A stretch of DNA of 64,000 nt from Escherichia coli (GTDB taxonomy: Bacteria > Pseudomonadota > Gammaproteobacteria > Enterobacterales > Enterobacteriaceae). The DNA lies in NCBI RefSeq assembly GCF_044324785.1, contig NZ_CP172127.1. One strand, 5' to 3'. The position numbers and the translations under genes were made by a program. Positions 9,231 to 12,738 of this stretch are shown here, piece by piece (within the stretch, counting starts at the first letter, position 1; each line of letters begins with the position of its first letter). The notes beneath the pieces were generated by a model that ran no database searches, had not been told where the DNA came from, and worked only from the letters and a program-made list of their open reading frames with translations.

Positions 9231-9899
9231 ATGGTGAAATTGATGAAAAAAAACACAGATGATGGGGCTAAAATTTACACACCACTTACCCTAAAGCTTT
9301 ATGACTGGTGGGTTTTGGGAGTATCAAATCGGCTTGCATGGGGATGTCCTACAAAGGAACACCTTCTTCCACACTTTCTGGAACATTTAGGTAACAACCA
9401 TCTGGATATTGGTGTTGGAACTGGGTTTTACCTTACTCACGTACCTGAGAGTAGTCTGATATCTTTAATGGATTTGAACGAAGCTAGCCTGAACGCGGCA
9501 TCTACAAGGGCTGGGGAATCAAAAATTAAACATAAAATTAGCCATGATGTTTTTGAACCTTATCCCGCGGCGTTACATGGCCAATTTGATTCCATTTCCA
9601 TGTTTTACCTTCTTCACTGCCTGCCTGGAAATATATCTACAAAAAGCTGTGTAATACGCAATGCGGCGCAGGCCTTAACTGACGATGGAACTCTATACGG
9701 AGCCACAATTCTTGGCGATGGAGTTGTGCACAATAGCTTCGGTCAAAAACTGATGCGCATTTACAATCAGAAAGGCATCTTTTCAAACACAAAAGATTCC
9801 GAAGAAGGCTTAACACATATACTCTCAGAGCATTTCGAGAATGTTAAAACCAAGGTTCAAGGTACTGTAGTAATGTTTTCCGCTTCAGGGAAAAAATAG
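9231..9899 (+). CDS. Class I SAM-dependent methyltransferase (YbcY-like)
   Basis: 222-aa ORF with methyltransferase motif I (LDIGVGTGFYL); AT-rich codon usage compared with flanking phage genes. Confidence 0.65.
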   Translation: MVKLMKKNTDDGAKIYTPLTLKLYDWWVLGVSNRLAWGCPTKEHLLPHFLEHLGNNHLDIGVGTGFYLTHVPESSLISLMDLNEASLNAASTRAGESKIKHKISHDVFEPYPAALHGQFDSISMFYLLHCLPGNISTKSCVIRNAAQALTDDGTLYGATILGDGVVHNSFGQKLMRIYNQKGIFSNTKDSEEGLTHILSEHFENVKTKVQGTVVMFSASGKK

Positions 9900-10403
9900 C
9901 ATCCAACCGCAGCACGTTCTTGCATACGCCGTGTCTGCGGTTTAATTTTCACTCTCAAATATTGTAGTTAAGTACAATCATGATTCTTTGGACTATATAA
10001 ATTTTCTTGTAATTAGTTCTTTAGCCGAAATTTTAAAACAATTATTTATTCAAGGGATGGACTCTATTAGGAACTATCTCAAAAACATGAATAACCACCA
10101 TCTTACGATTGAATTATTTTACAGAGTATTCTTATTGAGAAAAACAACAGCAGGTACACCAAATAATATAGAAATGTAAATTTAGGTTCATTAATCTTTT
10201 GAGTTACAACCTAAACTTTCCGTTAATCACTAAGATATCAATAGATTATACTCACTGAGCGCACGTTTTTTACAATTATTATTTCTCACATCAAAATGCG
10301 CATACCAATCTGTTATTTGACACTTTCTTATTTGTTACTAGAGTTAATTGGGTGCTGACAAGGCACATGTTATTTACAATTTGAAAATCAGAGGAGAAAT
10401 GAT

Positions 10404-10586
10404 ATGACCGAACATCGTGGCGGTGCAGGTAATTTCGCTGAAGATCGACAAAAAGCTTCTGACGCTGGTCGTAAAGGCGGCCAACATAGTGGCGGTAATT
10501 TTAAAAACGATCCACAAAGAGCATCAGAAGCAGGGAAAAAAGGTGGTCAGAATAGCCATGGTGGCGGCCGTAAATCTGACTCTTAA
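10404..10586 (+). CDS. KGG-repeat stress-induced protein (YciG/YmdF family)
   Basis: 60-aa Gly-rich ORF (MTEHRGGAGNFAEDRQKASDAGRKGGQHSGG…) closely resembling YciG; strong GAGGAG RBS upstream. Confidence 0.8.
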   Translation: MTEHRGGAGNFAEDRQKASDAGRKGGQHSGGNFKNDPQRASEAGKKGGQNSHGGGRKSDS

Positions 10587-10658
10587 TTTATTACCCCCTA
10601 CATTCGTGAATAACTGAAGCTAACTGCGAGCCTACGGGCTCGCAGTGAAAACTCTGGA

Positions 10659-11165
10659 GTGATTATGCAAATTAAATCTGTTGAAGATATCTTCATCCAC
10701 TTATTATCGGATACATACAGCGCTGAGAAACAACTAACAAAGGCACTGTCTAAACTTAGTCGCTCTGCATATAGTGATAAATTAACCGCTGCTTTTCAGT
10801 CACATCTTGATGAGACACATGGTCAAATTGAACGCATCGATCAGGTTGTTGATTCTGAAGATGGTCTTAAATTGAAAAGAATTAAGTGTGCCGCAATGGA
10901 AGGACTTATCGAAGAGGCGAATGAGGTAATTGAAAGCACTGATAAAAATGAAGTACGTGATGCAGCATTGATTGCTGCAGCACAAAAAGTAGAGCACTAT
11001 GAAATTGCCAGTTATGGCACTTTGGTAACACTCGCTGAGCAATTAGGATATAAAAAAGCGGCTAAACTCCTGAAAGAAACACTGGAAGAGGAAAAAGCTA
11101 CTGATGTCAAATTAACAGATCTGGCATTTAATAACGTTAATAAAAAAGCTCAGGATAACTCCTGA
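10659..11165 (+). CDS. Ferritin-like DUF892 protein, YciF-like
   Basis: 168-aa ORF highly similar to recalled E. coli YciF (…IEDVFIHLLSDTYSAEKQLT…HYEIASYGTL…). Confidence 0.8.
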   Translation: MIMQIKSVEDIFIHLLSDTYSAEKQLTKALSKLSRSAYSDKLTAAFQSHLDETHGQIERIDQVVDSEDGLKLKRIKCAAMEGLIEEANEVIESTDKNEVRDAALIAAAQKVEHYEIASYGTLVTLAEQLGYKKAAKLLKETLEEEKATDVKLTDLAFNNVNKKAQDNS

Positions 11166-11201
11166 ACTATAGACTTCAATTTCTTTTAGGATAAACAGAT
11201 T

Positions 11202-11708
11202 ATGAATAGAATTGAACATTACCATGACTGGCTTCGTGATGCACATGCGATGGAGAAACAAGCTGAAAAAATGCTTGAGTCTATGGCCAGCCGGATAGAA
11301 AACTATCCAGAGTTACGTTCCAGAATTGAGCAGCACATTAGCGAAACAAAGAACCAGCTTTCACAGCTTGAAAGCATACTTGATCGTAATAATATTTCGC
11401 GCTCTGTCATTAAAGACTCTATGAGTCAAATGGCCGCGTTTGGGCAATCCATTGGTGGAATTTTTCCATCTGATGAAATTGTCAAAGGTTCGATCAGTGG
11501 CTATGTGTTCGAACAATTTGAAATTGCGTGTTACACATCTCTTCTCGCAGCAGCCAAAAATGCGGGTGATACAGCCTCAGTACCCATTATTGAAGCAATT
11601 CTTAATGAAGAAAAACAAATGGCTGAATGGCTTCTTAACCATATTCCTGACACCACTGAACAATTCATGGTCAGATCTGAAATTGATGGAGTTGAAGCCA
11701 AAAAATAA
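11202..11708 (+). CDS. Ferritin-like DUF892 protein, YciE-like
   Basis: 168-aa ORF highly similar to recalled E. coli YciE (MNRIEHYHDWLRDAHAMEKQAE…). Confidence 0.8.
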   Translation: MNRIEHYHDWLRDAHAMEKQAEKMLESMASRIENYPELRSRIEQHISETKNQLSQLESILDRNNISRSVIKDSMSQMAAFGQSIGGIFPSDEIVKGSISGYVFEQFEIACYTSLLAAAKNAGDTASVPIIEAILNEEKQMAEWLLNHIPDTTEQFMVRSEIDGVEAKK

Positions 11709-11726
11709 TTCTTTTGAGGAGGCATT

Positions 11727-12617
11727 ATGTTTAGACACGTGAAAAAACTTCAATATACAGTACGTGTAAGTGAGCCAAACCCAGGCTTGGCTAATCTACT
11801 TTTAGAACAATTCGGCGGGCCACAGGGTGAGCTTGCAGCAGCATGCCGATACTTCACTCAAGGCTTAAGTGATGAAGATGCAGGCCGAAGGGATATGCTG
11901 ATGGACATAGCAACAGAAGAACTAAGTCATCTCGAAATTATTGGTTCTCTTGTTGGTATGCTCAACAAAGGTGCAAAAGGAGCACTTGCTGAAGGAACTG
12001 AGAATGAAGCTGAGCTTTACCGTTCCTTAACTCAAAATGGCAATGACAGCCATATAACTTCTCTCCTCTACGGAGGAGGCCCAGCATTAACTAATTCAGC
12101 TGGAGTACCCTGGACTGCAGCTTATGTTGATACTATTGGCGAAGTCACGGCCGATCTTCGTTCAAATATTGCAGCTGAAGCTCGGGCAAAGATCATTTAC
12201 GAACGTCTCATTAATGTTACTGATGATCCTGGAGTAAAAGACACTCTGGCATTTTTAATGACCAGGGAAGCAGCACACATGCTTTCATTTGAAAAAGCAT
12301 TACATTCAATTCGTAACACCTTTCCACCAGGGAAATTACCACCAATTGAGAAATACAAAAACGTATATTACAACATGTCAGAAGGTGAAGACGTCAGAGG
12401 TAGTTGGAACAGTGATGAAAACTTTGACTATGTTTCCGATCCAGTTCCAGCGGTTGACGGTGGGGATGGGAAGGCCTCGATAAATCTTTCGACCAAGCAA
12501 GAAGCTATGATAAAAGCTATGGCAACAAGGTTGAAATCCCATGAAGACATCAATCCTGTCACTGGCGCTGAGCTTGCTGAAGGAGAACCACAAACAAAGA
12601 TAAATAGTAAAAACTAA
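11727..12617 (+). CDS. Manganese (non-heme) catalase, KatN-like
   Basis: 296-aa ORF with Mn-catalase N-terminal region (…ELSHLEIIGSLVGML…); gene order yciG-yciF-yciE-katN as in the Salmonella operon. Confidence 0.8.
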   Translation: MFRHVKKLQYTVRVSEPNPGLANLLLEQFGGPQGELAAACRYFTQGLSDEDAGRRDMLMDIATEELSHLEIIGSLVGMLNKGAKGALAEGTENEAELYRSLTQNGNDSHITSLLYGGGPALTNSAGVPWTAAYVDTIGEVTADLRSNIAAEARAKIIYERLINVTDDPGVKDTLAFLMTREAAHMLSFEKALHSIRNTFPPGKLPPIEKYKNVYYNMSEGEDVRGSWNSDENFDYVSDPVPAVDGGDGKASINLSTKQEAMIKAMATRLKSHEDINPVTGAELAEGEPQTKINSKN

Positions 12618-12706
12618 TTATCTTCTGGTATTTAGCTATCCCTCATAAGTTAATTGCCGCTGAGATATCCTAAGCTCTAGCCTCTGAAAATACATTTATA
12701 TTTCGA

Positions 12707-12738
12707 AGCCCGCGATATTTTAAGCGGGCTTTTATTTT
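12707..12738 (+). terminator. Rho-independent terminator closing the yciGFE-katN-like operon
   Basis: Hairpin agcccgc-(loop)-gcgggct followed by tttatttt, between convergent katN-like and tfa genes. Confidence 0.5.

Follow-up and report, generated by a model that had tools for sequence, protein, structure and literature searches.

A diverged yciGFE-katN stress operon as probable cargo of a DLP12-type prophage at argU in Escherichia coli

The yciGFE-katN operon of Salmonella is reported to depend on RpoS (Robbe-Saule et al, 2001, as cited in PMC5363993). A related operon has been described on a prophage of enterohaemorrhagic E. coli (EHEC) O157:H7. In strain EDL933 the product of Z1921, 84% identical to Salmonella KatN, was named KatN, and its gene forms an operon with z1922-z1924 that is homologous to yciGFE-katN and located on the cryptic prophage CP-933X (Wan et al, 2017, PMC5363993). 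Expression of the EHEC katN gene requires RpoS and is promoted by OxyR, and an hns mutation derepresses it more than 450-fold (PMC5363993); Z1922, Z1923 and Z1924 were found to be 35-, 64- and 137-fold RpoS-dependent, listed together with native yciGFE (Dong and Schellhorn, 2009, PMC2907692). A catalase activity of 268 U/mg has been measured for EHEC KatN (PMC5363993), and the allele is expressed in stationary phase with a growth phenotype in H2O2 (PMC5363993, PMC2907692). Here we describe a cluster of the same genes at positions 9231-12738 of a 64,000-nucleotide stretch of E. coli DNA (contig NZ_CP172127.1 of RefSeq assembly GCF_044324785.1; hereafter the window). The finding is already known in kind, being another occurrence, at a different integration site, of the module published for O157:H7. 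We consider it very probable that the locus is a self-contained cargo cassette, located between the tail fibre assembly gene tfa and the attachment (att) site of a DLP12-type lambdoid prophage in argU, and that it holds a diverged copy of yciGFE-katN.

The open reading frame (ORF) listing places five co-oriented plus-strand genes within 9231-12738, with tfa converging from the minus strand, and all five ORFs named in a preceding reading of the letters (the first-pass annotation) were recovered at the same coordinates. The most upstream gene (9231-9899, plus strand) encodes a class I S-adenosylmethionine-dependent methyltransferase of 222 aa (Pfam methyltransferase domains; phrog_2132, 520 bits). 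It is followed on the same strand by a yciG-like gene (10404-10586; 60 aa with two KGG repeats, Pfam PF10685 matched twice), two genes for DUF892 ferritin-like proteins, namely a yciF-like gene (10659/10665-11165; 166-168 aa; PF05974, E 3.5e-54) and a yciE-like gene (11202-11708; 168 aa; PF05974, E 2.5e-50), and finally katN (11727-12617; 296 aa), encoding a manganese (non-haem) catalase (Mn_catalase PF05067, E 6.3e-87). For the yciF-like gene, the RefSeq annotation of the near-identical locus in strain SCU-104 uses the ATG equivalent to position 10665, which gives 166 aa. An NCBIfam search returned no match for the methyltransferase, YciG, YciF or YciE, and the identities were set by Pfam and by structures in the PDB: the yciF-like product matches 2GS4 (E. 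coli YciF, 1e-82) and the yciE-like product 3OGH (E. coli YciE, 1e-96). A KGG protein, two DUF892 proteins and a Mn catalase encoded in this order on one strand, with short gaps, constitute the layout of a yciGFE(katN) operon, and the Salmonella order yciG-yciF-yciE-katN, to which the cluster had been likened from its letters, is the order found. The G+C content of the cassette is 39%, compared with 50-60% in the phage structural genes.

The Pfam match of KatN is full length for the family, with residues 1-270 covering model positions 1-261 of 284. The NCBIfam model ManCatBAC scores 167 bits, under its equivalog cut-off of 350; judged by sequence, KatN is thus a member of the Mn catalase family and not a ManCatBAC equivalog. 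On alignment to the L. plantarum enzyme (1JKU), KatN residues E35, E65, H68, E151 and H184 fall on E35, E66, H69, E148 and H181, and Glu35, Glu66, His69, Glu148 and His181 are the five ligands of the di-manganese centre of 1JKU. The Mn-ligand check proposed in the first-pass annotation therefore came out in favour of the catalase, with five of five ligands conserved. KatN likewise matches Anabaena KatB (4R42) and the T. thermophilus enzyme (2V8T), as it does 1JKU, along its full length and with all five metal ligands, and differs from these three structures in about 55 further C-terminal residues, which align with none of them.

The cluster lies within an element bounded by an exact direct repeat of 47 bp. 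The left copy (7578-7624), at the cargo end of the prophage, duplicates the 3' part of the tRNA-Arg gene argU, and the right copy (57505-57551) lies within argU itself (tRNA-Arg(tct), 57507-57583, minus strand; ARAGORN and Rfam tRNA), the sole tRNA gene in the window. Beside the tRNA, at the opposite end of the element from the cluster, is a 387-aa ORF (56328-57491, plus strand) assigned as the prophage integrase from its position and our own reading of its sequence. The span from att to att is 49,974 bp and contains ompT, the methyltransferase gene, the four-gene cluster and what looks like a complete lambdoid prophage. The earlier placement of the cluster inside an att-bounded element was thus correct, and the element is a lambdoid prophage of the DLP12 type, full-length and apparently intact, that has integrated in argU. 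The omptin protease gene ompT (8047-9000, plus strand; NCBIfam NF008222, 707 bits; annotated as ompT in SCU-104) is neighbouring cargo in the same element, and the genes to the left of the cluster are, following the SCU-104 annotation, cusS, nfrB, nfrA, ybcH, envY (6773-7534) and ompT.

Boundaries within this element were obtained by comparison with phage 2G7b. Similarity to 2G7b stops at 9940 and restarts at 12755, delimiting a yciGFE-katN cassette of 2.8 kb (about 9941-12754, plus strand) that takes the place of 35 bp in the phage. The left junction coincides with the hairpin and T-run that follow the methyltransferase gene, and the right junction falls among the final codons of tfa. The same methyltransferase stands beside tfa, without yciGFE-katN, in phages 2G7b and ev243 and in the PhiR series. 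Among 5426 complete E. coli genomes, 4448 match part of the query, mostly the methyltransferase and tfa only, and more than 4000 have these two genes without the cassette. Because it is absent from collinear phages and from the more than 4000 genomes that keep its two neighbours, the cassette is dispensable. It is located within the prophage boundaries, has sharp junctions and, by sequence evidence, a promoter and a terminator of its own; these signals, a deviant composition and absence from sibling phages therefore make it a moron in the sense used for lambdoid phages. The idea that the cluster is phage-linked stress or oxidative-defence cargo, first put forward from the letters alone, agrees with its position inside the argU att repeats, its junction with tfa and its absence from collinear phages. 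The PHROGs database contains matching families, whose source genomes may be prophage-derived.

These observations bear on whether the cluster could instead be ordinary chromosomal DNA beside the prophage. Its location at the extreme end of the element, near ompT and envY in a region that looks chromosomal in K-12, would be compatible with such an origin, as would the absence of the cassette from every one of 50,697 sequenced phage records. However, the cluster is inside the 47-bp repeats, 352 genomes show it joined directly to tfa, a second chromosomal site also holds it between the same phage flanks, the native yciGFE operon lies elsewhere, next to trpA, and the methyltransferase beside it and even ompT are found in sequenced phages. 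We regard a chromosomal assignment as so improbable that it can practically be set aside. Phage 2G7b indeed places an omptin next to the methyltransferase, its positions 1-3755 holding ompT, an alpha/beta hydrolase gene, tfa remnants and the same methyltransferase gene; ompT is therefore itself mobile phage cargo. The direct ompT-methyltransferase junction of the window, which is also present in sequence type 131 (ST131) genomes, is a deletion variant of the 2G7b arrangement.

The cassette begins downstream of the methyltransferase gene, which is followed by a hairpin and T-run (9905-9950, plus strand; dG -18.1 kcal/mol, z -4.3) that is likely, on folding evidence, to be its terminator. The first-pass annotation had presented the methyltransferase as preceding the operon. 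This holds for its position but not for operon membership, since its own hairpin and T-run and an AT-rich spacer of about 450 bp intervene before yciG. A single functional unit of the methyltransferase and the four downstream genes, in which it might for example modify an operon product or regulator, would account for their adjacency and common orientation and for the presence of the methyltransferase in all genomes whose cassette was inspected. Nevertheless, the methyltransferase is found without the cassette in the genomes and sequenced phages noted above, it is separated from yciG by the hairpin and spacer, and other Enterobacteriaceae have the operon without a methyltransferase neighbour, which makes a functional unit of this kind highly improbable. 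The methyltransferase is an ordinary gene of the phage b region, a separate transcription unit outside the operon.

A consensus scan identified a promoter-like site of the yciG type at 10317-10344 (plus strand; TTGACA-16 nt-TAGAGT), with a C directly before the second hexamer and TAA directly after it. TTGAC and CTA..TTAA do not vary in an alignment of yciG upstream regions from five species, K-12, Salmonella, Enterobacter and Klebsiella among them, and the whole site is identical in the allele of O157:H7 strain Sakai. The site is accordingly predicted to be the conserved yciG promoter. We presume that it is a sigma-S promoter, as its type of sequence and the published RpoS dependence of the EHEC allele suggest. 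Between yciG and yciF lies a stem-loop with a perfect 10-bp stem and no T-run (10623-10646, plus strand; dG -21.2 kcal/mol, z -4.6), possibly an RNA stabiliser of the yciG transcript or a processing site. The operon terminator (12705-12741, plus strand) consists of a 9-bp G+C-rich stem with a 10-nt loop, followed by TTTTATTTTA, and overlaps the tfa stop codon; the consensus terminator scan misses it on account of its 10-nt loop, and it was detected by reading and folding the sequence. Its hairpin (12705-12732) has a dG of -16 kcal/mol and z of -4.2 on the plus strand, and a T-run is absent on the minus strand. The 'shared terminator' reported previously is consequently sound for katN, where the hairpin precedes a T-run, and doubtful for tfa on the minus strand. 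Against Rfam, no RNA family reached its gathering score in the cassette, and sub-threshold matches to CssrB and DdR13 (E 0.2-0.4) were taken as chance.

The closest known relative of the cassette is in prophage Sp8 of Sakai, where ECs_1652 encodes the catalase, ECs_1653-1655 the other three proteins and ECs_1656 the methyltransferase; ECs_1652-1655 are equivalent to Z1921-Z1924 of CP-933X in EDL933. In Sp8 these genes are flanked by tfa on one side and by a tfa remnant, ISEc8, the hydrolase gene and ompT on the other. The methyltransferase (ECs_1656), YciG (ECs_1655) and YciF (ECs_1654) are 100% identical between the window and Sakai, YciE differs from ECs_1653 by one substitution and KatN from ECs_1652 by two (I207L and P241S). 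At the nucleotide level there are 18 differences in 2751 coding nucleotides, three of them non-synonymous. The catalase activity, RpoS dependence and Salmonella KatN identity that were suggested as checks in the first-pass annotation are essentially published for this 99%-identical O157:H7 allele.

Divergence from Sakai is concentrated in an AT-rich spacer of about 190 bp (9985-10170), which is about 70% identical, with about 60 differences and a 6-nt indel, while both of its flanks, promoter included, are at least 99% identical. This patch may have arisen by recombination or be a spacer that H-NS binds and no constraint preserves. A 63-aa ORF at 9988-10179 was rejected as a gene, stops interrupting it in the Sakai allele; the ORF is not conserved and the patch is therefore non-coding.

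The same comparison speaks to whether the cassette might be a silent, decaying remnant without current function. The strong silencing of the EHEC allele by H-NS, the truncated KatN fragments of 112 aa and 157 aa that occur in some genomes, and redundancy with native yciGFE and the haem catalases could all be understood in this way. But the four ORFs are all intact, the 18 coding differences from Sakai include only 3 non-synonymous ones, against a divergence of about 30% in the neighbouring spacer, the Mn ligands and promoter are conserved, and stationary-phase expression and an H2O2 growth phenotype are on record for the EHEC allele. We therefore judge decay to be very improbable.

E. coli has an operon of its own to which the cassette is related. 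The comparison with K-12 yciGFE by BLAST, which had been suggested beforehand, reveals a diverged copy: the proteins are 80-93% identical (YciG 93% over 43 aa, YciF 80%, YciE 88%) and nucleotide identity is about 74%. The window operon is not located between trpA and ompW; it stands between the phage methyltransferase gene and tfa, within the att repeats, and this location makes it a mobile paralogue, not the orthologous locus. Whether a second copy is present, as had been claimed, is not visible within the window alone; in SCU-104, the nearest complete genome with this arrangement, the native yciE-yciF-yciG genes are also present, beside trpA. The yciG-yciF-yciE-katN order is widespread in Enterobacteriaceae, and species-representative genomes of Salmonella, Enterobacter, Klebsiella, Leclercia and Phytobacter contain it, but none of the species-representative genomes scanned has the methyltransferase or tfa beside it. 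Outside E. coli, the best KatN matches are in Kosakonia and Phytobacter at 86-87%, with YciF and YciE there just 64-68% identical; YciE is closest to that of E. coli itself (88%), KatN to those of Kosakonia and Phytobacter. No locus in 100,044 species-representative genomes matches all four proteins well. From these similarities, either the donor would be unsampled or the cassette would be a mosaic.

The distribution of the module in E. coli was determined over the same set of complete genomes. The whole 3.8-kb module was found in 344 of 5426, the katN-tfa junction in 352 and a prophage yciGFE copy at 95% identity or more in 377, a module frequency of about 6-7%. In a 40-row sample across the ranking of the junction search, katN was always joined to tfa; the cluster without the prophage, for which a check had been proposed, was not encountered there. 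A plasmid search found katN on none. The module occupies at least two chromosomal sites, namely argU/ompT (the window, SCU-104 and A17) and the Sp8 site (O157 and strain 111). Native yciGFE was detected by megablast in 4729 of the 5426 genomes; the remaining 697 (about 13%) gave no megablast match to the K-12 operon, and blastn suggests that many of them keep just ymdF-like similarity. Several of the best native yciGFE matches carry IS1 or IS5 inserted in the locus. In SCU-104 (2,140,032-2,193,469), another prophage lies between ompW and native yciE, its insertion having left a duplicated ompW fragment, and carries, at its tail-fibre end, genes for a YadA-like adhesin and an S6-family (SPATE-like) autotransporter peptidase.

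Together with published work on O157:H7, these data suggest how the cassette could act. The AT-rich DNA would be silenced by H-NS during growth, and, in stationary phase or on stress, RpoS-RNA polymerase would transcribe it from the conserved promoter of the yciG type. KatN, predicted to be a di-manganese four-helix-bundle catalase, would dismutate H2O2 by a haem-independent route. Iron is probably bound and oxidised by the two ferritin-like DUF892 proteins, which would limit Fenton chemistry; Salmonella YciF has iron binding and ferroxidase activity (bioRxiv 10.1101/2023.01.20.524870). YciG would serve as a small hydrophilic KGG-repeat general stress protein. The outcome would be lysogenic conversion, the host gaining peroxide and stationary-phase protection in addition to that from native yciGFE, KatG and KatE. 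By analogy with the EHEC allele, we infer that the window copy is expressed and beneficial to its host. In this scheme activity and regulation are drawn from the literature on the EHEC allele, and gene content, ligands, boundaries, linkage and allele identity from the present analysis.

A different role for KatN has been advanced for O157:H7, where the protein would act mainly as a type VI secretion system (T6SS) effector that lowers reactive oxygen species (ROS) in phagocytes and not as a cytoplasmic stationary-phase enzyme. The O157:H7 allele was claimed to undergo T6SS-dependent export and translocation into macrophages, with lower intracellular ROS there (PMC5363993), the claim is repeated in PMC12981562, and only two residues separate the window KatN from that of Sakai. 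Yet there are no T6SS genes within the 64-kb window, the structure of the operon and its promoter agree with those of the purely cytoplasmic stress operon yciGFE(katN) of Salmonella and K-12, the secretion claim comes from a single laboratory, and a katN mutant was not attenuated in mice (PMC5363993). An effector role for this copy seems to us possible but rather unlikely.

The benefit might also fall to the prophage. H2O2 triggers the SOS response and thereby induces lambdoid prophages, and a catalase operon could be carried to protect the prophage itself rather than chiefly its host, through less peroxide-triggered induction and stabler lysogeny. We give this only a small chance; if it is true, an RpoS-driven set of catalase and ferroxidase genes on the phage would stabilise lysogeny of this element and of co-resident Stx phages.

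Several observations weigh against the proposal that the locus is a transferred, functional stress cassette. Its donor was not found, with KatN identity at most 87% in the 100,044 species-representative genomes, and at the Kosakonia loci neither YciG nor YciF has a match beside katN. None of the phage records covers the cassette, so that its transfer in infectious virions is hypothetical. Expression and activity of this exact copy are carried over from the EHEC allele, and the spacer divergence means that upstream regulation could differ despite an identical core promoter. In the mouse model, the EHEC katN mutant was like wild type (PMC5363993); therefore any fitness benefit may be small or redundant. 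These points notwithstanding, the self-contained cargo cassette of the argU prophage remains our preferred reading, with the probability stated at the outset. It would mean that a lambdoid prophage can copy and spread a host core stress operon and that lysogens gain an extra haem-independent catalase, an enzyme tied in O157:H7 to peroxide resistance and macrophage survival. The window adds the occurrence of the module in a full-length argU DLP12-type prophage of non-O157 strains, its base-level boundaries and its frequency.

The remainder of the element is consistent with a DLP12-type prophage. The markers emrE (47407-47793), a large serine-recombinase-like gene resembling ybcK (45626-47152), ybcL (44610-45161), an AraC-family gene (43803-44600), rusA (42321-42683), bor (37076-37417) and lom (16784-17383) were recognised as those of K-12 DLP12. 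The element comes close to the lambda packaging ceiling of about 51 kb, and, on the reading that the operon protects the prophage itself, the cassette may persist solely in prophages that shed other b-region DNA. The window lacks the hydrolase, IS and tfa-remnant segment of Sp8 and no virion with the cassette is on record, which would fit such shedding near the packaging ceiling.

Adjoining the cassette, tfa (12737-13318, minus strand; phrog_105, 333 bits) is 100% identical to lambda tfa over positions 12754-12800. The Rfam family IS009 (RF02111) matches 12777-12975 on the minus strand with 228 bits, wholly within the tfa coding sequence, and this 'sRNA' family appears, from the overlap, to have been modelled on prophage tfa sequence. 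Next to tfa is the side tail-fibre gene (13318-16725, minus strand), which has a long Ala/Ser/Thr-rich repetitive N-terminal half and varies in length among similar prophages (3408 nt in the window, 2973 nt in SCU-104 and 2916 nt in Sakai Sp8). Elsewhere in the element, an insert of 33% G+C (38800-41600) separates the late-gene antiterminator region from the lysis genes, at a position that holds stx in Stx phages and nmpC in DLP12. It contains genes for a Blc-type outer-membrane lipocalin (41041-41565; 316 bits) and a YbgA-like DUF523/DUF1722 protein of 319 aa (39889-40848), with a truncated AraC-family fragment (38808-39197), and looks like a second cargo site of the same prophage.

Compared with the systems already described, the cassette has the gene order, the conserved promoter and the protein families of Salmonella enterica yciGFE-katN, at 80-88% protein identity (KatN 84%); it differs in that the Salmonella operon belongs to the core chromosome, between trpA and ompW, and has a G+C content of 47%, against 39% in the window. 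E. coli K-12 yciGFE (b1257-b1259) encodes paralogous YciG, YciF and YciE proteins and has the conserved promoter, but it lacks katN and its locus is next to trpA and ompW. CP-933X/Sp8 agrees with the window in the genes and their order, in having the methyltransferase and tfa as neighbours, and in a core promoter without any difference. Sp8 lies elsewhere on the chromosome and has the tfa remnant, ISEc8 and alpha/beta hydrolase gene between ompT and the methyltransferase, whereas in the window element, at argU, the methyltransferase directly follows ompT. Finally, lambdoid morons and lysogenic-conversion genes located downstream of the tail-fibre genes, such as lambda lom and bor and DLP12 ompT, are likewise inserts between conserved phage genes, with their own promoter and terminator and a deviant composition, that are absent from sibling phages. 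Unlike these single surface or virulence genes, the window cassette holds four genes that form a stress operon of the RpoS type, copied from a core locus of the host.

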